DNA from: an uncultured Eubacteriales bacterium
GTDB lineage: Bacteria; Bacillota; Clostridia; Oscillospirales; Acutalibacteraceae
Assembly: GCA_958417225.1 (NCBI GenBank)
Contig: CATZCM010000003.1
Coordinates: forward strand, 13,433-77,432
DNA length: 64,000 nt
Direction of reading: 5' to 3'
Below, piece after piece: positions 15,670 through 61,559 of the stretch. The notes beneath the pieces are model-generated. The model did not search any database, was not told the DNA's origin, and saw only the letters and a list, made by a program, of their open reading frames with translations. The stretch's first letter is position 1; every line of letters starts with the position of its first letter. The position numbers were made by a program, and so were the translations under genes.

Positions 15670-16413
15670 CTCTCAATCTCCTTACAAAAGTACTATAACC
15701 TTATTTTATGCACTAAACAAAAAAGTTGGGACACCTACTACATAGACAGCACTAAGGACGAATAGACCTATAACCTAAGATTATTATACTTGGCATCTCA
15801 GTGAGCACAGATCTAACTTAGGTAGTAAATTGTCAAAGTTTTTCGCCACCTTTGTTATAACTCTGTACTACAGTTTCAACTTTAATTATTACCTCTGTTA
15901 CTCAACAATAACTTCTACTTATTTAGTAATACTTTCTACTTCTTTCAAATTTAGAACCAGTGCAGTTCGTTCCTAATTGAAAAGGTTAGACACTAAAAAA
16001 ACGAATGTTTAATTATGTAAGATAACTTGAATGAAATAATGGAGTAATGACCTAAAACGTCCACCCCATTATTCCAACTGGTGTCTATCAACGAAAGTTA
16101 AAGCGTCAAAAAACTAGTGAGTTCGGCTGAGAATAATCATCCCTGAACAATACAAAAGTTGCAAAAATTCGGATAGTATCTCCTGTATACCGGAAATCTA
16201 CAAAAACACTCAAAGTAAGAATGTAAATAATACTCTCTAACGAAATTGTAAATATACAAAACTAAACTTACGCTCTTATAGAAACCTAGTGTGGCAATAA
16301 AACATCGTAATTTTTTACTGACAGATACAAAAAAGACAAAAAACTTCAATCTTACATCTACCGATAACCTAATTAAATAATTTTAATACCTGCATTTTTG
16401 ACGATTAGTATGT

Positions 16414-18387
16414 TTAAAAGGATTGATTTTCCGCATGGCAAGCAAGATAACCAATTGTTTTTCCCTTATATTTTTCTTTTGATTTTGGAGGTCTACCGTA
16501 CTTTTCCATGAACTCTTTTAATAGCTCTAACTTCTCATTTTTCACTGTTTCGGCTTTATTCCACACAAAACCAATTTCATTAAGTTTACTTATTTTTTCT
16601 GCATTCAACGTACCTTTGCGATATTTTTCTCTTTGCAGGTTCATCCACTTATATACATTAGATTTTATCAAATTTTTCCTAACATCAGTAACAACCGGAA
16701 ATCTGCCATTTTCATCTCGAAATGTTTTGAGCGTATTATAATTGTTTTCCCAAACCTCAGCCATCGGCACAATCCTCAGCTCAAAACCCAAATCATTGAA
16801 CTTTTTCACATGCAAATCTGGCATATCGTTATTTTTGAATTTTTGTTTCTGATTCAGCATCCAGTTGTAAAGTACACTAACGGTTTCATCGTGCGCTGCG
16901 TCAGAGCGTTTTGGAAAACGACCATGCTTTTCCTTGAATAAGCTAAGTAATTTATAATTTTGTTCCCACTTCTCCTCGTCCTGAGACCACACAAAATCTA
17001 TCGAATCCAGTTTCTGAACCCGCTCCACACCAAGAACGCCTTTTTTTCGCAGTACTCGTTGATTTGCACACCAATTTCCAATATGAAATCCATCATATTT
17101 TTCATCGTAATACGGAAATCTTTCATACTTTCCTTTAAACTCGCACACAGCATCAAAAACCACATCCCAAGCCCCTTCAAACGATAAATGTAATTCCGTT
17201 AAAATTTCCCGCACATCTTTCACATAATCATACAACTCAAATTCAATATTATCATCGTCTCTGGACTCAAAACGATTATTTTTCATACCCATTATCTGAG
17301 AATATTGATTTGCTGTATCACCCGTTTCATAGTTGTTTACGATGTCAAAAATAACCGGACTCGATACAGAACACGATAGTGCTCGTCCCAACTGTTGATA
17401 AAACACATTCGCAGATTGCGTACTACGCAACATTATCACTCCATCTATATTTTTCACATGAATCCCCTCATTAAGCATATCTACACAAAATAACAGTTTC
17501 AGCACATCCGGATCATTGTCATCACGGAATCGCTCAAACTGCTCGTTTGACTCAGAATTACCTGTATGAACGCTGTATGTATGAATTTTTCCGTTTACCT
17601 TACAAAACCAATCTTTACTCTCACTTACTGATTTTTTCAGCTTTTCTATACTTGGACAAAATATTATGTATTTTCCACTCCTGTTCTTCATGTGCCTTAC
17701 GAAAATTGTCTCTAACCCACAATCCAACTGAGTCACCATACTTTTGGCTTTTTTGATTTTCCCAAGCAATACCATCTTCAAACGGATATTTTTACTCTGT
17801 TCGGCCTTTCGCTCTAATCTCGCAATTTCTCCAGAAAATTTGTAATACGATGTCACATACACCGGCAATGGTAAAATTTTTTCACGTATCGCATCCGCTA
17901 AACTCATGTTAACCGCAAAGTTATTATTAAAAAGCTCATCCGCCATATTTCTAAGCGAATCCAGGTACCTTATCGGAGTCGCAGACGTCCCCAACACCTT
18001 TGCGTCTTCATGCATTGAAAGAAGTTTTTGTACCCCTATGCCCCATTCCTTCGCCCCTGCGCGATGAAATTCATCCAACACTATGTAATCAGTCTTCAAC
18101 TTTTTTATGCCCTTTTCATCCTGCTGACTTAATTTCGAGTACGTGACAAACTCACATTTACTTACATCAATGTCACTCTCGTTTGCGTGATTCTTCAGCT
18201 GTGACAGGATATACGCTGACGGCGACACGATAACAAAAAAACTCTCCGGGTTGTCTTCTATCAGCTTCAACACGATATAACTCTTTCCTGTACCTGTTGG
18301 CTGTACACATGCAACTTTTTGCTTTTTGTGAAAAAAATTCACTATCCGCTCATATGTTTCCTCATTGTGTTCATATAGCTCCAGCAT
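16414..18387 (-). CDS. DEAD/DEAH-box (SF2) helicase with C-terminal helicase-associated (HA) domain repeats
   Basis: Walker A QPTGTGKS, DEFH box, motif III TSATP, QQLGRALS. The last ~260 aa contain 3.5 copies of a ~65-aa unit (W..N...L..F....GRFP......W...Q...........KL..IGF.W) typical of HA domains. Confidence 0.8.
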   Translation of the reverse strand: MLELYEHNEETYERIVNFFHKKQKVACVQPTGTGKSYIVLKLIEDNPESFFVIVSPSAYILSQLKNHANESDIDVSKCEFVTYSKLSQQDEKGIKKLKTDYIVLDEFHRAGAKEWGIGVQKLLSMHEDAKVLGTSATPIRYLDSLRNMADELFNNNFAVNMSLADAIREKILPLPVYVTSYYKFSGEIARLERKAEQSKNIRLKMVLLGKIKKAKSMVTQLDCGLETIFVRHMKNRSGKYIIFCPSIEKLKKSVSESKDWFCKVNGKIHTYSVHTGNSESNEQFERFRDDNDPDVLKLLFCVDMLNEGIHVKNIDGVIMLRSTQSANVFYQQLGRALSCSVSSPVIFDIVNNYETGDTANQYSQIMGMKNNRFESRDDDNIEFELYDYVKDVREILTELHLSFEGAWDVVFDAVCEFKGKYERFPYYDEKYDGFHIGNWCANQRVLRKKGVLGVERVQKLDSIDFVWSQDEEKWEQNYKLLSLFKEKHGRFPKRSDAAHDETVSVLYNWMLNQKQKFKNNDMPDLHVKKFNDLGFELRIVPMAEVWENNYNTLKTFRDENGRFPVVTDVRKNLIKSNVYKWMNLQREKYRKGTLNAEKISKLNEIGFVWNKAETVKNEKLELLKEFMEKYGRPPKSKEKYKGKTIGYLACHAENQSF

Positions 18388-39375: not shown

Positions 39376-39405
39376 TTTATAAAATCATCTTTATAACACA
39401 ATCAA
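39376..39405 (-). promoter_or_regulatory. Weak/moderate promoter candidate directly upstream of rfbA
   Basis: Minus strand TTGATT (39405-39400), 18 nt, TATAAA (39381-39376). The -35 overlaps the left inverted repeat. Confidence 0.35.
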
Positions 39406-39430
39406 GTCGCAAATCATAATCTTTTGCGAC
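39404..39430. repeat. Left copy of a perfect 27-nt inverted repeat (itself a hairpin, 8-10 bp arms)
   Basis: aagtcgcaaatcataatcttttgcgac is the exact reverse complement of 39800-39826. The arms GTCGCAAA/TTTGCGAC are palindromic, but the 9-nt centre (tcataatct vs agattatga) shows the two copies are inverted, not direct. Confidence 0.9.
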
Positions 39431-39477
39431 TTATGGTTTTAACTTCGCATACAGTGTGGGGTTGGATAATTTTCTTG

Positions 39478-39517
39478 CGAAAAATCTGACGGCAAATGCT
39501 ATAAAATTGCCGTCAGA
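39478..39517 (-). terminator. Rho-independent terminator (minus strand) inside the IR-flanked segment
   Basis: 11-bp perfect stem TCTGACGGCAA / TTGCCGTCAGA (39485-39495 / 39507-39517), followed on the minus strand by TTTTTCGC. Confidence 0.65.
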
Positions 39518-39759
39518 AAATTCTGGAAATTAAAATTGAGTTATGAACGTTCAAACATAAAAAGAATGCGTCCTTGAGCCAAAAACACAGATTTTTTACA
39601 TAAAACACATTAATTTGAAAAGTGATCAAAAAAATTAACATAAATCTTTTCAAAAAGAGTCGATAAAACTCCTTGTAAATTTCATTTTGATTGTGATACG
39701 ATGCTGTGATATGTGATTTTAACTATTGTGCCGAAAAAAAACTTTTTTTTGTATTTTAC

Positions 39760-39788
39760 TTGACTTATCCTTTTTATGAATATATAAT
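39760..39788 (+). promoter_or_regulatory. Near-consensus sigma-A promoter pointing rightwards (away from rfbA)
   Basis: TTGACT (39760-39765), 17-nt spacer, TATAAT (39783-39788). The predicted start, about 39795, is only a few nt before the right inverted repeat. Confidence 0.7.
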
Positions 39789-39799
39789 ATTAATTGTGT

Positions 39800-39826
39800 G
39801 TCGCAAAAGATTATGATTTGCGACTT
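39800..39826. repeat. Right copy of the 27-nt inverted repeat
   Basis: gtcgcaaaagattatgatttgcgactt is the reverse complement of 39404-39430. Confidence 0.9.
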
Positions 39827-39831: not shown

Positions 39832-39839
39832 ATTTCACC

Positions 39840-39883
39840 TTAAAGCCCCGTTATATGCGGTTTTGCATATAACGGGGCTTTAA
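39840..39883. other. Perfect 19-bp stem / 6-nt loop hairpin
   Basis: ttaaagccccgttatatgc-ggtttt-gcatataacggggctttaa. No clean U-tract on either side. Function unclear; it may be a bidirectional transcription barrier. Confidence 0.6.
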
Positions 39884-39910
39884 AATTAAATTACGTATAC
39901 TTTCAATTTC

Positions 39911-39948
39911 AAAAAAAAATAGCTGCAAGACATAAATCTATACAGCTA
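39911..39948 (-). terminator. Rho-independent terminator after the small peptide gene
   Basis: Minus strand TAGCTGTA...TTGCAGCTA (6-8 bp stem) followed by T9, about 30 nt after the stop at 39977. Confidence 0.6.
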
Positions 39949-39976: not shown

Positions 39977-40228
39977 TTAAGATAATCGATTACTCAAACC
40001 ACAATAAATAAGTGGAATATTTTCTTCTCCACGAATATTTTTCATATGTTTACAAAACTGGCAATCATTTTTCATCGCCTTTAGTTCTTCTGAAGAATAG
40101 TCATTTCCCAGTGAATCTTTCAAAAATTTCGCATCAAAGCTATCGCAATAGCAAGAACCTAGTGGATCAATTAACTTATAAACGCCACCATTTACACTCA
40201 CTTCGTCATTATTTTCAACTTTCAACAT
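39977..40228 (-). CDS. 83-aa Cys-rich peptide with a double-glycine-type leader (candidate exported peptide/bacteriocin precursor)
   Basis: ATG 40228 is preceded by GGAGAGGG (5-6 nt spacing), 18 nt after the ABC gene stop. Sequence is MLKVENNDEVSVNGG/VYKLIDPLGSCYCDSFDAKFLKDSLGNDYSSEELKAMKNDCQFCKHMKNIRGEENIPLIYCGLSNRLS. It is co-oriented with a C39-peptidase ABC exporter. I recognise no family. Confidence 0.6.
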   Translation of the reverse strand: MLKVENNDEVSVNGGVYKLIDPLGSCYCDSFDAKFLKDSLGNDYSSEELKAMKNDCQFCKHMKNIRGEENIPLIYCGLSNRLS

Positions 40229-40246: not shown

Positions 40247-42442
40247 TCACGAATAGTTATCAGTACGTTGACGTTCCACAAGCTCTGCAAAATATCCCTT
40301 TTTATCTATTAGCTCTTGATACGTACCATCCTCAATAATCTTTCCTTTATCCAAAACCACAATTCTATCACAATGTTTAATAGTAGACAGTCTATGAGCA
40401 ATAACAATCCTCGTACTTTTCAAGCTATCAAGGGAATCAGACACTTGTTTTTGAGTAATATTATCAAGTGCAGATGTTGCTTCATCAAACATAATTACCC
40501 TAGGTTTAGGAGCTATAGCCCGAGCAATCATCATTCTTTGCTTTTGACCTCCAGAAATTCCTCCACCACCCTCACTTATGACAGTATGCATTCCCATCGG
40601 CATATTTCGTATATCGTCATCAAAGCCTGCCATACGAGCAGCCTCCCAAGCATCGTTAAGGGTAAGCCATGGTGCACAAATCACAATATTAGCAAAAATG
40701 TCCCCCGAAAACAATTTTCCATCTTGCATAACTGTTCCGATCTTTTGCCTCAAAGATCTTAAATCTAGAGATTTTATATCTTTTCCATCATAATAAACCG
40801 CACCACTATTTGGAGTCTCAAATCCCAATAAAATTCTCATCAAGGTTGATTTACCACAACCTGTCTTTCCAACTATAGCAATGTATTCTCCTGGTTTTAT
40901 CTTCAAACTTAAGTCATCAAGTATCAAAGGTCCATTCTCACTATACTTAAATGAGATATTATTTAGTTCAATATTCCCAGAAAGTTTTGTAAGTATTTTT
41001 TTATTCACATTAACTTCAGGTTGGGCATCTAAAATAGGGGACACCAATTCAAGTGTTGGTTTAATTTTAGCCATAGTTGTAGCTATACTTGCCAAAGACA
41101 TAATTGCACTACTAATTTGTCCGTACGCAGTGTTAAATGCAACATAGTCCGCTACATCAATTTTCGATTGAATTGCAAAATAATACAATACTATCGTACC
41201 AATTGAACTCACAATAGTACTAAAAATCGGCCAGATTTTAACTATAAAAGCTGGATTATACTGTAACTGTGCTGAATCCTTGTAAACATTGGACCACTTT
41301 GCAAAAGCACGTTTTTCAGCTCCGGCCAACTTTATTTTTTGAATTCCGCTAAACAAAGAGAATACCAACCCTTGGAGTTTATTTTCCACCTCATTATTTT
41401 TTCGTTGCAAATTCATCGAAATATACACATAAATCGTTGACATCACCAACTGAACCAAAACAATAATTATAGCTGGAATCACCAACATTCGCCCATACGC
41501 TAACATTGATCCCAAATAAACAAATGAGCATAAAGCTGCCAATCCATGTTCTAGCACAGCACTTGTAAGCATCGAACAGAGCGAATTCAAACTAAAAGTT
41601 CTATTAGCAAGTTCTCCCGCATTGTAATCTTTGAAAAAAGTAGCTGGCAGTGACATCAATCTACTCATAGCCGCACACGAAACTGCCAAACCCATTTTAG
41701 TTTGGAGCCTAGTCCGTACCAACGCACTCGTAATTGAAATCAAATACTGAGAAATTTCAACACCAATAAAAAATGTCAGCACTGGTGCTAAAAAGTTAAG
41801 ACCACTTTCACCAAGAGGAACTACCTTTTGATAAATCGTCTTATTCACCATTGGCACCAAAAGACCTATTAAATTACCAAAAATCATTGTAGCAACAATC
41901 ATTAACAAATCGGCTTTTGACAAAGCACTAAGTGAGTACCACAATAGATCCTTGATTTTCAGAGGTTTAAGTGGAAGCGGTTTATAAAAGCAAATAGCCT
42001 CCGGTTTAATTAAATTCATATTTTTAGAACTGAGCGAAACATGCTTGCCTGTTTTATAATCATAATATCTATAATGACCAATGCCATACGGTAAAAGAGC
42101 TATAACTTCTCCAGAAGCAGTCCTCCCAATCATGGGTCCAATTGCGTCTTTCCACCACTTACCATTTAGCTTAACATTTCTATACATGATTCCTGTGGGT
42201 TTAAGCATATATTCTAGCTGATCACTAAACCCTTCTACATCATTTGGTAGCTCAATTATTTTCGATTTATAGTATTTTAATATTTCCTCAATCGCATTTT
42301 GAGTTTGAACTCTTTCATTATTAACTGTAGCTGATGAATGTTGTTTTCCAAGTATTACCGAAGATAAGTCTATAACGGCATCCTCAAACTCCTGACTATC
42401 TTTTTCGATTCTGGTTTTTATTTGCTCATCGAACCAACCCAT
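40247..42442 (-). CDS. ABC transporter permease/ATPase without peptidase domain (NHLP-type bacteriocin exporter, second subunit-like)
   Basis: 731 aa. A ~160-aa non-peptidase N-terminal domain, six-TM ABC exporter core, Walker A GKTGCGKST, signature ISGGQKQR, Walker B IMFDEATSALD. Paired with the C39-ABC gene, as in the TIGR03796/TIGR03797 pairs I recall. Confidence 0.75.
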   Translation of the reverse strand: MGWFDEQIKTRIEKDSQEFEDAVIDLSSVILGKQHSSATVNNERVQTQNAIEEILKYYKSKIIELPNDVEGFSDQLEYMLKPTGIMYRNVKLNGKWWKDAIGPMIGRTASGEVIALLPYGIGHYRYYDYKTGKHVSLSSKNMNLIKPEAICFYKPLPLKPLKIKDLLWYSLSALSKADLLMIVATMIFGNLIGLLVPMVNKTIYQKVVPLGESGLNFLAPVLTFFIGVEISQYLISITSALVRTRLQTKMGLAVSCAAMSRLMSLPATFFKDYNAGELANRTFSLNSLCSMLTSAVLEHGLAALCSFVYLGSMLAYGRMLVIPAIIIVLVQLVMSTIYVYISMNLQRKNNEVENKLQGLVFSLFSGIQKIKLAGAEKRAFAKWSNVYKDSAQLQYNPAFIVKIWPIFSTIVSSIGTIVLYYFAIQSKIDVADYVAFNTAYGQISSAIMSLASIATTMAKIKPTLELVSPILDAQPEVNVNKKILTKLSGNIELNNISFKYSENGPLILDDLSLKIKPGEYIAIVGKTGCGKSTLMRILLGFETPNSGAVYYDGKDIKSLDLRSLRQKIGTVMQDGKLFSGDIFANIVICAPWLTLNDAWEAARMAGFDDDIRNMPMGMHTVISEGGGGISGGQKQRMMIARAIAPKPRVIMFDEATSALDNITQKQVSDSLDSLKSTRIVIAHRLSTIKHCDRIVVLDKGKIIEDGTYQELIDKKGYFAELVERQRTDNYS

Positions 42443-42459
42443 TTATAACACCTCACTCT

Positions 42460-44616
42460 CTATTCATTTGAAACTAGTTTAGTGTATAAACCGCCATTTT
42501 TGTAGAGTTGTTCATGAGTACCTCGTTCCACAATTTTGCCATGGTCCATCACTATAATCTCATCGCAATCTCTAATCGTAGACAATCTATGTGCAACTAT
42601 TACACATGAAATGCCTCTATTTTTTATGGCCTTCATCACTTCAAACTCAGTTTTTGCGTCAAGCGCCGATGTTGCTTCATCCATAATAATTATAGACGGA
42701 TCCTGTGCTAGCACTCTTGCAATTTCAAAACGCTGTATCTGTCCTCCAGAGAAATTCTTGCCATTTTCCAACACCTTTTCACTATATCCATCAGAACGTT
42801 TAACTATATCATCATGAATTTGGGCATCTCGAGCTGCAAGTATAACTTCAAAATCTTCAATTGATTCATCCCACATTTTTATATTATCGGACACCGAATC
42901 TTCAAACATGATTTTATCCTGATCAACAACCGCCAAAGACCCTGCAAATACTTCTCTTCGTATATCCTCTCTTTTTTTTCCATCAAACGTAATACTCCCT
43001 GACCATGGTTGATAAAGGCCTGAGATTAACTTTGCAAGAGTCGATTTGCCACACCCTGATGCACCTACAAAAGCCACCCTTGATCCTGGTTTCAATTTAA
43101 GATTAAAATTCTCAATAAGCGGTCCGGAAAGCCTATTATATCCAAACGTAACATCTTTCATTTCAAGCTCACCGCTTAATTTAGAGCATTCCTCATTTTC
43201 AATGTTACTATCTTCGTCAAATTCAACATCTGTTTCATAGCTCATCACATCTTCTATTCTTTCCATAGATGTTCTCATTTCGATGAAGCTTGTCCCCAAT
43301 GAAATAAACTTATTAATTGGTGAATTAAACAGGGACAAATAAGAAGTAAACTGCATTAAAAGACCTACTGTAAAGTTTCCCTTCATTATAAAGTAAACTC
43401 CGGCACCTGTTACAGCTATGCTTGTTAATGTTGTAATAATAGTTTGAACCGAACCAATATACTGGGCTATTTTCGCAGCTCTTACCTGCGCAGAATTAAA
43501 AGACGCGAAAAAACCTGACCAACGCTCAAAAAATCCATTTTCAGCACCAGATGATTTCACAGTTTCTATCATGTCTATACCCGACATAGTACTCGAGGCC
43601 AATTTCCCACTATCCCTCATCATACCTCTTGCAACATTTTGCTGCAAAAGCGCACTATATCTTGCTATTAAAATATTTATAAGAAGTGTAGAAAGCCCAA
43701 TAATCGTAAGAATCCACTGATTACTGATCATCATCCATAAATACAAAATCAACAGGAACACGTCTATTACTACCGGTGACAATTGATCAATAAGCGTATT
43801 CGCTATATTAGCGTTAGTACTCTGTCTACTAGCTATATCACCAGCCAATCTTTGTGAAAAGAACTCCATCGGAAGTCTAAGTACATGCCACATAAATGTA
43901 GTACTTCCGATAATTGCAACTTTACCTTGTATTTTCAACCTGTAAACCGTTTCTATTGCCATTTGTACTATCTGTATTAATACAAATAAACTAATCGCAA
44001 CCAAAAATGGAACTATCCATTCGGGGTTTTTTGCATTTACTCCCAACAGTCGGTCATAGAAAACTCTACCAAAAGCTGGCTGAATTATTTCTATAGCGCC
44101 TGCAATAACACTTGTTAGCATAACAAAAATTATTGGAATTAACGTGCCTTTCAATCTCTTGCGAACGAACTTTAATACACTCTTTGGTTTGCCTCCCTTT
44201 TGGAATGACTCCCCCGGTGAAAAACACAATGCAACCCCTGTAAACGACTCATCAAATTCCCTCATACTAACGGCAACCTTGCCACGAGCAGGGTCATTTA
44301 TATATACTCTATCTTTCGAAAATCCAGTTAAAACAACAAAATGATTAAAATTCCAGTGAATAATCGCTGGCAGACTCAATTCCTTAGCTTCTTCAACTCC
44401 ACATTTATAAGCATTCGCATTTAACCCATATGCCCTAGCCGCCAACATCATATTTTTACAGTTGCTACCGTCACGGGATACGCCACAATCGGTTCTAACT
44501 TGCTCAAGTGGAAGCCATTTTTCATAATAGGCAAGTATCATTGCAATACAGGCTGCTCCGCACTCGAGGGCTTCCATTTGAATAACAACTGGAACCTTTG
44601 TTTTTTTATTTTTCAT
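42460..44616 (-). CDS. C39-peptidase-domain ABC exporter (bacteriocin-processing/export type)
   Basis: 718 aa. N-terminus QMEALECGAACIAMILAYY...HWNFNHFVVLTGF...NDPA carries the C39 Cys/His motifs. Then TMD, GASGCGKST, FSGGQIQR, IIMDEATSALD. Confidence 0.85.
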   Translation of the reverse strand: MKNKKTKVPVVIQMEALECGAACIAMILAYYEKWLPLEQVRTDCGVSRDGSNCKNMMLAARAYGLNANAYKCGVEEAKELSLPAIIHWNFNHFVVLTGFSKDRVYINDPARGKVAVSMREFDESFTGVALCFSPGESFQKGGKPKSVLKFVRKRLKGTLIPIIFVMLTSVIAGAIEIIQPAFGRVFYDRLLGVNAKNPEWIVPFLVAISLFVLIQIVQMAIETVYRLKIQGKVAIIGSTTFMWHVLRLPMEFFSQRLAGDIASRQSTNANIANTLIDQLSPVVIDVFLLILYLWMMISNQWILTIIGLSTLLINILIARYSALLQQNVARGMMRDSGKLASSTMSGIDMIETVKSSGAENGFFERWSGFFASFNSAQVRAAKIAQYIGSVQTIITTLTSIAVTGAGVYFIMKGNFTVGLLMQFTSYLSLFNSPINKFISLGTSFIEMRTSMERIEDVMSYETDVEFDEDSNIENEECSKLSGELEMKDVTFGYNRLSGPLIENFNLKLKPGSRVAFVGASGCGKSTLAKLISGLYQPWSGSITFDGKKREDIRREVFAGSLAVVDQDKIMFEDSVSDNIKMWDESIEDFEVILAARDAQIHDDIVKRSDGYSEKVLENGKNFSGGQIQRFEIARVLAQDPSIIIMDEATSALDAKTEFEVMKAIKNRGISCVIVAHRLSTIRDCDEIIVMDHGKIVERGTHEQLYKNGGLYTKLVSNE

Positions 44617-44632
44617 AATTCAACAGCCTCCC

Positions 44633-45253
44633 TCACGAATTAGAACCTGTTAAAAATTCAATGGGTCTTTCCAGCTGTGTTATAATGTCAATTTCACATA
44701 TAGTATTACCATATAAAGTCGCCGTATTGTTCTTATCTGATGACCAATTGAGCTTATCGGTTTTAGACAAACTGCGATCCAATGATATAATAAGTTCCAT
44801 TGCATATCCGCCATTTGGTAAAATTCTCGCCGCTGCAAATTCACCAAGTTCATCTTGTAATTCTTCGAAGGAAACATACGTATTGCTTACACTCTTAACT
44901 TCTCCAGTTATGTATCCCCCTTCTGATTCGCTAGGTGTAACTTTAATTTCTCTGATAGTACTATTATTATACGCTTGTCCTATCACATTTGCATTGCTTG
45001 AAGGTACATAACATTTCACAGTTGTTACAAGTTCCGAATTAGCTATCGGAGGAACCGTTATGCCATTACAAGTAACCTTGCTTGGAATACTCCCAGCAAA
45101 TCCCCAATAAAAAGTCGCACCTAATAAAATTATCAACGCAGCAATTACAATCCAAACGCTTGGATTAGAAACTTTAATGTAATCATTTAATTGCTCCGGT
45201 GAAGATATACGCTCTAAACTTTTTTTACGAAAAACACTTTGGTTCTCCATCAT
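44633..45253 (-). CDS. Short HlyD-family/NHLP-system secretion accessory protein
   Basis: 206 aa. FRKKSLERISSPEQLNDYIKVSNPSVWIVIAALIILL is the N-terminal motif plus single TM typical of bacteriocin-secretion adaptor proteins. No long coiled coil is present. Confidence 0.65.
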   Translation of the reverse strand: MMENQSVFRKKSLERISSPEQLNDYIKVSNPSVWIVIAALIILLGATFYWGFAGSIPSKVTCNGITVPPIANSELVTTVKCYVPSSNANVIGQAYNNSTIREIKVTPSESEGGYITGEVKSVSNTYVSFEELQDELGEFAAARILPNGGYAMELIISLDRSLSKTDKLNWSSDKNNTATLYGNTICEIDIITQLERPIEFLTGSNS

Positions 45254-45273
45254 ATTCAGCCCCCTTATAAATT

Positions 45274-45573
45274 TTATTCTATATTTAATACATCCACAAA
45301 ACCTGTAATTTCAAACACTTCCATAATCTCTTCATTTGCATTTTTAACCTTTAAGCATCCATCTATCGACTTCATCCTTTTATGCATTGACAATAAAACC
45401 CTAAGTCCTGCGCTACTCATGTACACTAGTTCCTTCAAATCAAATATAAGCTCTTTTACTCCATCTAATCCATCATGCAACTCTTTTTCCAATTGTGGAG
45501 CTGTATTTGTATCCAACCTTCCCTCGATGCTCACAGTTAACGTTTCACCATTTAATTTTTTATTTAGTGTCAT
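45274..45573 (-). CDS. STAS-domain protein (SpoIIAA-like anti-sigma-factor antagonist fold)
   Basis: MTLNKKLNGETLTVSIEGRLDTNTAPQLEKEL......LIFDLKELVYMSSAGLRVLL....K......L.VKNANEEIMEVFEITGF is a classic STAS pattern, including the DLK.L.YMSSAGL phosphorylatable-Ser region. Start set to ATG 45573 (GGGAGGG 6 nt upstream). It is the first gene of the exporter operon. Confidence 0.8.
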   Translation of the reverse strand: MTLNKKLNGETLTVSIEGRLDTNTAPQLEKELHDGLDGVKELIFDLKELVYMSSAGLRVLLSMHKRMKSIDGCLKVKNANEEIMEVFEITGFVDVLNIE

Positions 45574-45700
45574 CCTAATCCCTCCCATTTAATTTTGAGC
45601 TGAAAGCTTGACCATAAGAAGTGCCTTATCAAATTGTAAAATTAATATAATAACAAGGATAACAAGTGCACTTTTTTTATAAACTCTATTCGTGATTTAT

Positions 45701-45729
45701 ATTATACAACATTTTTTTATTTTATGCAA
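45701..45729 (-). promoter_or_regulatory. Promoter candidate for the STAS-exporter-peptide operon
   Basis: Minus strand TTGCAT (45729-45724), 17 nt, TATAAT (45706-45701), about 120 nt upstream of the STAS start. Confidence 0.6.
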
Positions 45730-45792: not shown

Positions 45793-46143
45793 ATGAAAAA
45801 CAAAAAACATAGCATTTATGGACTTATATGTGGAATAATAAATGGCCTCCTTGGAGCAGGTGGAGGTATGGTTCTCGTACCTATGCTTTACCAAGAAGGC
45901 CTTGATGCCAAAGCAGCTCATGCGACATCCATAAGCGTAATTTTACCTTTATGTATACTAAGTTCTATTATGTACGTAATAAATGGCGAAACTAATATTT
46001 TCGACGCATTATTTTATATTATTCCGGGCATAATAGGTTCATTAATAGGAATATTACTTTTAGAAAAATTAAACAAAAATATTATAAAAAAATGTTTAGC
46101 TATCATAATGCTTTGGTCTGCCATTCGAATATTTTTAAAATAA
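45793..46143 (+). CDS. TSUP (TauE/SafE) family half-size membrane protein, part 1
   Basis: 116 aa, 4 TM, with ..GLLGAGGGMVLVPML.. and the ..AHATS.. motif of TSUP repeat units. Confidence 0.7.
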   Translation: MKNKKHSIYGLICGIINGLLGAGGGMVLVPMLYQEGLDAKAAHATSISVILPLCILSSIMYVINGETNIFDALFYIIPGIIGSLIGILLLEKLNKNIIKKCLAIIMLWSAIRIFLK

Positions 46144-46155
46144 AGGAATGTTTAT

Positions 46156-46509
46156 ATGTCTTACGTATTTAAAATTTTAGCAGGAATTTTATCTGGAATA
46201 TTTGTATCCATGGGTATGGGTGGAGGAAGCATTTTTATAATCTACCTTACATTTTTTGAAGGTTTTTCTCAAATCTCAGCTCAAGGCACAAACATCATTT
46301 TTTTTATTCCAACCGCCATTTGCGCCATACTCATCTACAGCAAGAGAAAACTTATAAAATGGAAAATTGCTACTCCACTTATAACATGGGGGATCTTCGG
46401 TACACTCATCGGTTCTTTCGCTGTAACCGTACTTGACAAAAATTGGCTACAAAAAATTTTTGCAGTCTTTTTAGTAGTCATGAGCATAAAAATATTCATT
46501 AGCAAATAA
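46156..46509 (+). CDS. TSUP (TauE/SafE) family half-size membrane protein, part 2
   Basis: 117 aa, 4 TM, with ..GMGGGSIFIIYL.. and ..AQGTN... 12 nt downstream of part 1. Confidence 0.7.
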   Translation: MSYVFKILAGILSGIFVSMGMGGGSIFIIYLTFFEGFSQISAQGTNIIFFIPTAICAILIYSKRKLIKWKIATPLITWGIFGTLIGSFAVTVLDKNWLQKIFAVFLVVMSIKIFISK

Positions 46510-60110: not shown

Positions 60111-61559
60111 TTATTTCGGCAGCGAAAAAGAAAACTCACAATATTCACCCTGAACGCTTTTCACAGAAATTTCTCCACCATGAAGCTTCACTATAGTTTT
60201 CACAATAAAAAGACCTAATCCCATACCATTTTTATCTTTGCTACGCGATTTATCAATTTTATAAAAACGATCAAAAACCTTCTGAATTTCCTCAGATGAA
60301 ATACCATCACCACTATTTTTTATAGTCACTGTAATTTGCGTATTGGATTCACTTAAGTTTATATTAATATACCCGTTCTGATTAGTGAACTTAACTGCAT
60401 TTTCCATAAGATTATACACTACCTGATAAATCATGTCAATATCTCCATTTATGAAAACCTTACTCGAAACCCCATCACAGTTAACTTCTATTAATTTATT
60501 TTCAATATTCTGTTCAAATGACAACAACACATCAACCAACACTTGTGAAATATCAAACCGTTTTTTACACAAATTAAGATTACCACTATCTATGCGGGAA
60601 ATGTTTAGCATTGAAGTAACCAATCTCGAAAGTCTTTTTGTCTCAGAAGACACGATTTTCAAATAATGGTCCTGGTTTTCTCTATTTATAGTCCCATCTA
60701 AAATTCCATCTACAAAACCCGAAATAGTCGTCATCGGAGTTTTTAATTCATGCGACACATTTGCAATAAAATTTCGTCTAACAGCCTCAGAAGATGCCAA
60801 ATGATCAGCCATATTGTTAAAAGCTATTTCTAACATACCTATCTCGTCATTTGAGTCAACATTCACGCGATTTGAAAAATCGCCCTCACTAAAAGCTTTT
60901 GTAGCATTGACCATTTGTTCAATAGGCCTAACCATTTTGTACGTAAGGTACCATACCATAGCAAATGAAAATACAAAAGCTCCCATGAACACATAAAGAA
61001 AAACTTTCAGTATCTCCCACCTAAATTCATATAACGTAGAAAGTTCGCATGACACAAAAACCGCACCTATTACACGACTCGAATTTGTATTGCTATTTTC
61101 ATAATTAATAGGAATCCCTATAGTATATCTATTTTCTTCATAAAATCCATCAAGTTTTTGCTTATTGACATATTTCCCTTTTACCGTCTTATTCATAACA
61201 TCTGAAGGAACAGTCTTTTCAGCATAATCGATATCGCTATTACTTGAGTATATAAGAACTTTCCCATTTTCTCCAACTAAAAATATATCCGCACAAAACA
61301 CCTGAGAAAACTCATCAATTGAATTTTTCAACATAAAAGTCTCTTGTGAACCAAGTACTCCTCCATCAATCTGAACACATCTTTCCACAAAGCTCGCTGT
61401 ATTTTCCGCATTTTTGGAAAAAAGCATACTTTTTTCATTTTCCCAGTTTCGCGATATAAACATCCACAAAGTCACAAAAAGTGATATAAAGCTTATCAAT
61501 ATCAACGATATAACTACCCCAAAATATTTTCTCTTAAGCGTATTTCTCATAGAACTCAC
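60111..61559 (-). CDS. Sensor histidine kinase (HAMP-HisKA-HATPase)
   Basis: Two TM segments flank a ~150-aa extracytoplasmic domain. HAMP, H-box VSHELKTPMT, N and G boxes (..NAVKFT.., ..GMGLGL..). The GTG start overlaps the regulator stop by 1 nt. ATG 61550 is an alternative start. Confidence 0.88.
   Translation of the reverse strand: MSSMRNTLKRKYFGVVISLILISFISLFVTLWMFISRNWENEKSMLFSKNAENTASFVERCVQIDGGVLGSQETFMLKNSIDEFSQVFCADIFLVGENGKVLIYSSNSDIDYAEKTVPSDVMNKTVKGKYVNKQKLDGFYEENRYTIGIPINYENSNTNSSRVIGAVFVSCELSTLYEFRWEILKVFLYVFMGAFVFSFAMVWYLTYKMVRPIEQMVNATKAFSEGDFSNRVNVDSNDEIGMLEIAFNNMADHLASSEAVRRNFIANVSHELKTPMTTISGFVDGILDGTINRENQDHYLKIVSSETKRLSRLVTSMLNISRIDSGNLNLCKKRFDISQVLVDVLLSFEQNIENKLIEVNCDGVSSKVFINGDIDMIYQVVYNLMENAVKFTNQNGYININLSESNTQITVTIKNSGDGISSEEIQKVFDRFYKIDKSRSKDKNGMGLGLFIVKTIVKLHGGEISVKSVQGEYCEFSFSLPK

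Follow-up and report, generated by a model that had tools for sequence, protein, structure and literature searches.

A 64-kb stretch of DNA from an uncultured Eubacteriales bacterium of the family Acutalibacteraceae (GenBank assembly GCA_958417225.1, contig CATZCM010000003.1, positions 13,433 to 77,432; hereafter the window, with positions counted from its first nucleotide) carries a peptide-export operon headed by a gene for a STAS-domain protein. The operon occupies 45.73–39.83 kb on the minus strand and consists of five tightly spaced genes, which encode, in order, the STAS protein, a short HlyD-like adaptor, an ATP-binding cassette (ABC) exporter with a C39 peptidase domain (ABC1), a second ABC exporter protein (ABC2) and a small peptide. 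All five genes and their order are as described in a first-pass annotation made from the sequence alone. By comparative genomics, we show that partner-switching modules, which combine a STAS protein with an RsbW-like Ser kinase and a PP2C phosphatase, are recurrent operon-level companions of this exporter family. Judged from its sequence, the STAS protein of the window is the antagonist component of such a module. We consider it somewhat probable that it couples a phosphorylation signal to the exporter, and that it does so at the protein level rather than through a sigma factor.

The STAS protein (99 aa; 45274..45573, minus strand; ATG start after a GGGAGGG ribosome-binding site) was confirmed as such by hidden Markov model (HMM) searches. 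It matches PF01740 with E=3.3e-17 and 62.6 bits (cutoff 22.6) and passes TIGR00377, the model for anti-sigma-factor antagonists, with 69.6 bits (cutoff 53.45). Its scores fall below the cutoffs of two equivalog models, those for SpoIIAA (TIGR02886; 56.9 bits, cutoff 114.75) and MlaB (NF033618; 20.3 bits, cutoff 90). The protein has the motif YMSSAGLRV, with Ser54 as the predicted phospho-acceptor. We take this residue to be equivalent to Ser58 of SpoIIAA, on the basis of a by-eye alignment to the SpoIIAA and RsbV sequences. The phospho-serine motif is conserved in all 43 aligned members of the STAS family, across every context class. Among 1445 homologues, the best 120 are 55–66% identical to the window protein, except for two closer ones (99% and 85%), and the named members of these 120 come from Lachnospiraceae, Eubacterium, Ruminococcus and Clostridiales metagenome-assembled genomes. 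Within the species, the STAS protein is intact and 99% conserved, and its motifs are unbroken.

The link between STAS and exporter was examined in a survey of 80 of the 553 loci with short-adaptor relatives in a data set with one genome per species. The loci, designated by L numbers, were annotated with HMMs built in this study. The order adaptor, C39-ABC, ABC2 was found in nearly all 80 loci, the exceptions being short or cut contigs. At least one partner-switching gene was present in 41 loci; STAS genes were found in 33, genes for RsbW/SpoIIAB-like HATPase_c_2 kinases in 31 and genes for SpoIIE/PP2C phosphatases in 28. When the count is limited to the 32 loci with full flanks, 18 have some module gene and 11 have all three. 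Module genes share the strand of the cassette in 81 of 86 cases, and the nearest one lies less than 100 nt from the cassette in 28 of the 41 loci, with a median gap of 51 nt. Several orders recur, namely kinase-STAS-adaptor, PP2C~kinase fusion-STAS-adaptor, STAS-…-PP2C-kinase-adaptor and cassette-STAS-kinase, and most cassette-linked STAS genes are accompanied by a kinase and/or phosphatase gene. The named taxa are mostly Clostridia, and Spirochaetia (Bullifex porci) and one Eggerthellaceae genome are also represented. From this survey, in which the STAS gene usually belongs to the same operon as the exporter genes, we conclude that the tie between the two proposed in the first-pass annotation is real and widespread.

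L001 contains an orthologous cassette whose ABC proteins are 55% and 48% identical to those of the window and whose STAS protein is 63% identical. Its order is cassette-STAS-HATPase_c_2 kinase, followed on the opposite strand by the gene of a phosphatase of the CHASE2-SpoIIE type and by a radical SAM/PqqD cluster. The phosphatases encoded at related loci carry the sensor domains CHASE2, HAMP and 5TM-5TMR_LYT. Other arrangements were also seen. In L095:8766-20300, the order is GGDEF, STAS, a non-ribosomal peptide synthetase module, SpoIIE, kinase, two small open reading frames (ORFs), C39-ABC and ABC; a non-ribosomal peptide gene is in this case linked to the same switch and exporter. In a Spirochaetia locus (L058:8966-9544), the coding sequence of a tandem-STAS protein of 192 aa begins 4 nt ahead of the ABC2 stop codon; this locus has, in addition, a single STAS gene immediately upstream of the adaptor gene. 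Fusions of STAS domains to kinase domains of the APH type (aminoglycoside-phosphotransferase-like) are encoded in L074:238-1431, L096:4615-5784 and 16134-17357, and L098:8609-9736, near members of the same partner-switching family.

In the window itself, HMMs built from the relatives detected no RsbW-like kinase, PP2C phosphatase or sigma-70-family gene anywhere in the 64 kb, in agreement with the earlier reading. A weak match to the kinase HMM at 60111-61559 proved to be a classical HAMP-HisKA-HATPase_c histidine kinase and was rejected as an RsbW-like candidate. The first-pass annotation had held that pairing with a SpoIIAB-like kinase would speak against its interpretation, and in part this objection applies: such kinase genes stand at the 31 related loci counted above, and none stands in the window. 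The window is not alone in this respect. STAS-adaptor-ABC1-ABC2 operons free of kinase and PP2C genes within 10 kb were found in this species, in L092/L093 and in L060. The L092/L093 operon, whose adaptor is 45% identical, lies between adhE and ylxM-ffh, a different chromosomal context, and that of L060 carries Nif11 cargo and a radical SAM/SPASM maturase. L094 has the same gene order as the window, within a contig that offers just 154 nt of sequence upstream of the STAS gene. The motif Y[ILM]SSAGLRV is kept in all eight aligned STAS-only operons, including that of the window, and the alignment shows the STAS proteins of kinase-less operons to be intact and indistinguishable from the kinase-associated members. 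Eight further loci have a kinase and a STAS gene but no PP2C gene within 10 kb, indicating that dispersal of module parts is common.

The genes that stand next to the modules suggest where the switch acts. MatE transporters with a C-terminal HATPase_c_2 (RsbW-like) domain are encoded at L041:5178-6962, L048:5949-7739 and L057:5172-6956, all above the Pfam cutoff, and a further MatE-HATPase_c_2 fusion at L075:4807-6528 is borderline. These fusions lie in STAS/PP2C/kinase modules directly upstream of the export cassette, and they place a membrane exporter and an RsbW-like domain on one polypeptide. Large major facilitator superfamily proteins accompany other members of this STAS family. In the rsbV-rsbW-sigB and spoIIAA-AB-sigF operons, the sigma gene occupies the place after the kinase. 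In the loci studied here, the gene after the kinase or STAS gene is the adaptor, and no sigma gene follows the kinase. Moreover, sigma-like genes, mostly of the extracytoplasmic function (ECF) type, occur at 16 of 41 module-positive and 16 of 39 module-negative loci, and no sigma gene was found in the 16–20 kb retrieved at 7 of 11 STAS-relative module loci (L001, L003-L007 and L095). Because RsbW-like domains are fused to MatE transporters and sigma genes are no commoner at cassettes with the module than at those without it, an output at the level of the transporter is favored. As a separate observation, genes near the MatE-fusion modules include those for LPG_synthase_C (L041, L070), GNAT (L041, L080) and a methyltransferase (L080).

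The exporter with which the STAS gene is associated has two ABC proteins of the NHLP/Nif11-type class, to which they had been assigned in the first pass. ABC1 (718 aa; 42460..44616, minus strand) is a C39-peptidase/permease/ATPase protein with Peptidase_C39, ABC_membrane and ABC_tran domains. It scores 906.1 bits against TIGR03796 (cutoff 853.3) over its full length (7-715), and its Peptidase_C39 domain (PF03412) has E=6.4e-36. One Cys, one His and one Asp are invariant in 31 aligned C39 domains; we read them as the catalytic residues, and ABC1 is predicted to cleave a double-glycine leader and to export the peptide. ABC2 (731 aa; 40247..42442, minus strand) matches TIGR03797 with 752.6 bits (cutoff 709.4) over residues 69-725. 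The conservation of its N-terminal domain (about 170 aa) extends over 31 cassettes and includes no invariant Cys or His. Residues 1-170 gave no Pfam match even at E<=0.1 and no PDB sequence match, and hhalign against the C39 profile returned a probability of 1.3%. A degenerate C39-like domain was hence rejected, and the earlier description of the domain as a non-peptidase one stands. A single-sequence AlphaFold2 model of this domain has a predicted local distance difference test (pLDDT) score of 39, too low to give a fold.

The adaptor (206 aa; 44633..45253, minus strand) was assigned through a partial match to TIGR03794, a family alignment and an AlphaFold2 model. It scores 84.5 bits against TIGR03794, below the cutoff of 156.2, and the best stretch covers model positions 1-53 of 421. 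Proteins of this family are 160–210 aa long and have a near-invariant cytoplasmic N-terminus, FRKKSLERISSPEQLNDYIKVSNPSVW, a single transmembrane helix and a small outer domain rich in beta structure, which in the window protein lacks the coiled-coil hairpin. The AlphaFold2 model has a pLDDT of 78, and its top Foldseek matches in PDB are the membrane-fusion proteins 4l8j, MacA, EmrA and Spr0693, all of them weak (E 0.016–0.3; TM score about 0.30 over about 120 columns). The first pass had named the protein as the HlyD-like component of the cassette. The N-terminal match and the weak likeness in fold speak for this assignment, whereas the cutoff of the full model is not reached; the label short HlyD-like adaptor thus seems reasonable for a modeled protein that by score lies outside TIGR03794. 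From these sequence comparisons, the operon is best explained as a short-adaptor version of the NHLP/Nif11-type three-gene export cassette with its own cargo gene.

The cargo gene would be the last of the operon. It encodes an 83-aa peptide (39977..40228, minus strand) from an ATG at 40228, in a frame open from 40246 and with the ribosome-binding site GGAGAGGG 5 nt upstream. The peptide consists of a 15-aa double-glycine leader, MLKVENNDEVSVNGG, which ends in VSVNGG, and a 68-aa core, VYKLIDPLGSCYCDSF…, which starts with VYKLIDP and contains five Cys. The identical 83-aa protein was called on 20 contigs, on which other gene callers chose the same start, and six variants of this species all retain the Gly-Gly pair and the five Cys. 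The sole detectable homologue is the peptide encoded behind ABC2 in L094, which is 65% identical, has the leader MQKFGENEKINVNGG ending in INVNGG and the core TYKLIDPFGSCNC…, and shows the same Cys pattern. The window peptide matched neither Nif11 (TIGR03798) nor NHLP (TIGR03793) even at E<=1, nor bacteriocin_sig TIGR01847, and the 64-kb window contains no Nif11-like ORFs. HMM scans of the window thus agreed with the earlier statement that Nif11 and NHLP leader peptides and a maturase are absent. The leader has V at -4, E at -7, D at -8 and V at -12; the consensus of double-glycine leaders is hydrophobic at -4, -7 and -12 and acidic around -8. Given the conserved double-glycine leader and a position at which relatives carry Nif11-leader peptides, we regard the peptide as the probable cargo of the exporter. 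The first pass had listed the gene correctly, but it missed this probable role.

Cargo genes of other kinds lie beside the related cassettes. Candidate cargo ORFs stand directly behind ABC2 in L008, L010 and L031, that of L031 having a short leader. In 34 of the 80 loci, we found a total of 103 ORFs with Nif11-like leaders ending in …ELSDEELDNVAGG, and three of seven that were tested exceed the TIGR03798 cutoff of 32.3 bits (43.7 bits in L041; 37.2 and 37.9 bits in L067). Radical SAM/SPASM maturases are frequently encoded near the cassettes of relatives with such ORFs. The window leader resembles the last 15 residues of a Nif11-like leader. Placement of the window core as a diverged member of the 'GCHKKDGRLVV…CxxCK…GLWLCNHP' family was suggested by a CxxCKHM shared by eye, but an HMM of that core family gave no match at E<=10, and the idea was dropped. 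Separately, paralogous Nif11-leader precursors were noted in arrays, with at most about eight members at a locus, at L070:15000-18350, L086:7600-10950 and L060:14900-15760. Their Cys-rich cores are 50–80 aa long and of the type GCHKKDGRLVVT…CxxCK…GLWLCNHP, and the L060 array adjoins a radical SAM/SPASM enzyme.

On these grounds, we propose the following mechanism. The C39 domain of ABC1 would recognize the 83-aa precursor by its double-glycine leader and cut it after Gly15, and the 68-residue Cys-rich core would be exported by ABC1 and ABC2 together with the single-pass adaptor. The kinase and phosphatase acting on the STAS protein are presumed to be encoded elsewhere in the genome. Phosphorylation of Ser54 would toggle the availability of the STAS protein for partner binding and thereby couple an upstream signal to peptide secretion. 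Such control would most likely operate on proteins, with the transporter or a kinase-like partner docked to it as the target, rather than through a linked sigma factor. A more specific version, which we put forward only tentatively, is that the unphosphorylated STAS protein, or the released kinase, docks on the dual ABC exporter and on the MatE-RsbW-like transporters and gates the secretion of bacteriocins and of peptides that are made on ribosomes and modified after translation (RiPPs) upon an extracellular or envelope signal. If docking on transporters does occur, partner switching would gain a new class of output, and peptide export in gut Clostridia a new layer of regulation.

Several points weigh against the proposed mechanism. 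The 64 kb covered by the window hold no cognate HATPase_c_2 kinase or PP2C/SpoIIE gene for the STAS protein, and about half of the related cassettes have no local partner-switching gene. Outside the cassettes, five of seven sampled contexts of the STAS family are partner-switching modules without an ABC cassette. For this reason, we rejected the STAS protein as a dedicated exporter subunit; its pathway may be a broader one, with the exporter as only one of the co-regulated neighbors. About 20 cassettes have, within 10 kb, a gene for an ECF-like sigma factor of 165–190 aa. It is gene context that suggests a contact between the STAS protein and the exporter, and family membership that points to cleavage after Gly15 and export of the peptide. 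Finally, the leader has Glu at -7, where the consensus is hydrophobic.

The presence of ECF-like sigma genes near so many cassettes leaves room for a transcriptional output. In this alternative, the STAS protein would be a classical anti-anti-sigma factor whose unphosphorylated form sequesters a distal RsbW-like kinase, freeing an unlinked sigma factor for this and other operons, and the position of its gene at the head of the operon would provide feedback rather than a contact between STAS protein and exporter. The TIGR00377 score and the retained phospho-serine motif fit such a role, as do the RsbW-like kinases and PP2C phosphatases of the relatives, types also present in the sigma-B and sigma-F systems. 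Some of the ECF-like sigma genes are directly adjacent to the cassette (L014, L026, L043, L072), and one, in L067, was confirmed by Pfam. On the other side stand the equal frequency of sigma genes with and without the module, the seven module loci that have no sigma gene in the retrieved stretch, the adaptor gene found where canonical operons have the sigma gene, and the MatE-RsbW-like fusions, which point to partners among membrane transporters; the window, too, has no sigma gene in its 64 kb. We judge the transcriptional alternative unlikely.

A second alternative was the one drawn in the first-pass annotation, in which the STAS protein was a stand-alone novelty comparable to MlaB. In MlaB-MlaF, a STAS protein is the accessory subunit of an ABC transporter. 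By analogy, the STAS protein of the window would bind an ABC nucleotide-binding domain constitutively and stabilize or gate the exporter without a phosphorylation cycle. Like MlaB, it is a STAS-only protein encoded with ABC transporter genes; its gene precedes that of the adaptor by 20 nt within a single operon, and STAS-only operons persist in at least four lineages, this species included. However, the protein falls far short of the MlaB model, its family is associated with kinases and phosphatases at the majority of cassette-linked STAS genes, and the phospho-acceptor Ser is kept in the kinase-less operons, the STAS proteins of which are indistinguishable from the kinase-associated ones. In addition, a local STAS gene is missing from half of the cassettes, the exporter has fused transmembrane and nucleotide-binding domains, and Mla is a lipid system. 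This explanation therefore appears improbable. Even less probable is the absence of any functional link, with an independent exporter and a STAS gene that is the remnant of a decayed module or a chance neighbor: the module-free half of the related cassettes, the window without kinase and phosphatase genes, and the occurrence of the STAS family elsewhere in genomes would agree with it, but the shared strand and short distances of the module genes, the STAS-adaptor junction kept between operons with 45%-identical adaptors in different chromosomal contexts, and an intact STAS protein that is 99% conserved in the species with its motifs retained all speak for a link. Thus, the first-pass interpretation was partly supported: the linkage was right, the orphan MlaB-like gate was not upheld, and the cargo had been overlooked.

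Coupling of the exporter to a phosphorylation switch, as we propose it, can be compared with several known systems. The NHLP/Nif11 three-gene export cassette (TIGR03794/03796/03797) was described by Haft et al. (2010; PMC2887384), who do not mention STAS or anti-sigma components. The window operon shares its order of adaptor, C39-ABC and second ABC, with both ABC proteins above the equivalog cutoffs, and its relatives adjoin Nif11-leader peptides and radical SAM/SPASM maturases. It differs in that the adaptor is short (206 aa, compared with the 421-position model) and below the cutoff, the cargo has a 15-residue Gly-Gly leader and no Nif11/NHLP domain, there is no maturase, and a STAS gene heads the operon. 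Peptidase-containing ABC transporters, such as PCAT1 of Clostridium thermocellum, which transports a double-glycine peptide, and those of TIGR01193, likewise have an N-terminal C39 domain with the invariant Cys/His/Asp and an adjacently encoded Gly-Gly-leader substrate. In contrast, the window encodes two distinct ABC half-transporters, the second with an N-terminal domain that is neither a peptidase nor C39-like, and ABC1 scores 355.8 bits against TIGR01193 (class II bacteriocin exporters), below the cutoff of 523.85.

With the RsbV-RsbW-RsbU/P and SpoIIAA-SpoIIAB-SpoIIE modules, the window shares a single-domain STAS protein with a conserved phospho-Ser, and its relatives have genes for HATPase_c_2 kinases and SpoIIE-type PP2C phosphatases on their flanks. 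Unlike in those modules, an exporter instead of a sigma factor is encoded behind the kinase, the window has neither kinase nor phosphatase gene, and the score against the SpoIIAA model is below its cutoff. Partner switching with non-sigma outputs has been described for Bordetella BtrU/V/W (type III secretion) and Vibrio SypA/SypE (biofilm polysaccharide) (PMC8256260, PMC13555669). In Anabaena All4160/HenR/Alr3423, a STAS phospho-switch with a distally encoded kinase has a glycosyltransferase as its non-sigma target (PMC13555669). What they have in common with the switch proposed here is that STAS phosphorylation governs secretion or an envelope process instead of a linked sigma factor, and the distant kinase gene of Anabaena is a further parallel. 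They differ in their companion, which in the window is a Gram-positive double-glycine peptide ABC exporter and in the relatives also includes MatE transporters. Full-text searches of open-access papers returned none linking STAS proteins or partner switching to double-glycine peptide exporters or to MatE fusions.

All parts of the operon are of known kinds, namely a dual ABC cassette, a double-glycine cargo and a STAS antagonist, and it is the family-wide association that gives weight to the finding. The window alone would be a modest curiosity, an exporter operon with a detached STAS gene and an unusual cargo of its own. Many bacteriocins and RiPPs of gut Firmicutes leave the cell through double-glycine peptide exporters, the control of which is generally attributed to two-component or quorum-sensing systems. 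Operon-level coupling of the exporter to partner switching by Ser phosphorylation, seen at about half of the 80 loci, points to a different control logic. It also offers a tractable case in which to study the role of partner-switching modules without an attached sigma factor, and the MatE-RsbW-like fusions provide a concrete hypothesis, in which transporters are the binding partners. Such switches may explain the silence of many RiPP clusters in heterologous hosts.

The layout of the operon is compact. The spacers between successive genes, from the STAS gene to the peptide gene, are 20, 16, 17 and 18 nt; the gaps are thus short, as the first pass had noted, and the overlaps that it had also mentioned are absent. 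A candidate sigma-70-type promoter was read from the sequence at 45701..45729 (minus strand), with TTGCAT at 45729-45724, a 17-nt spacer and TATAAT at 45706-45701. Its -10 box is perfect, and its -35 box matches the consensus at three of six positions, which is why a consensus promoter scan omitted it. The site had been called a good promoter; plausible is the better word. Neither the leader of about 120 nt nor the rest of the operon region gave an Rfam match at E<=1, and no riboswitch or other known RNA was found there. Downstream of the peptide gene, a strong hairpin with 27-nt arms that are 89% complementary (39832..39891, minus strand), found by an inverted-repeat search and inspection of the sequence, is the probable end of the operon. 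A second, weaker stem, with nine consecutive T after it, was seen by eye at about 39912-39945. The operon is flanked by housekeeping genes, with two half-size TauE genes and ligA upstream and rml and polysaccharide genes downstream, and the same operon in the same ligA/TauE/rml context was found on many metagenome contigs of this low-GC species.

Some features of the flanks deserve mention on their own account. The two adjacent TauE/SafE half-genes, 45793-46143 and 46156-46509 (plus strand), encode 116 and 117 aa in swapped order, the first corresponding to Pfam profile positions 132-236 (the C-terminal half) and the second to positions 2-110 (the N-terminal half); the pair is kept within this species. 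Between the operon terminator and an rmlA-like gene, a perfect 27-nt inverted repeat (39404-39430 and 39800-39826; AAGTCGCAAATCATAATCTTTTGCGAC and its complement) encloses 369 nt of non-coding DNA. Each arm appears by eye to be capable of forming a hairpin, and the pair (39404-39826) could be an element like a miniature inverted-repeat transposable element or a pair of terminators. In the 600-nt gap past the operon terminator, an ORF with a TTG start (39513-39653, minus strand) encodes a hydrophobic 46-aa peptide; it has no convincing ribosome-binding site and was left uncalled by gene callers in the same region of L088-L091, and it could be an immunity-type peptide. Lastly, about 1 kb upstream of the STAS-headed cassette of L060, the region L060:3-7200 contains an apparent type II CRISPR-Cas locus, read from translated ORFs rather than by HMM, with ORFs resembling the Cas9 C-terminus, Cas1, Cas2 and Csn2 and with repeats that translate as 'LITVQDNTMLKL'.

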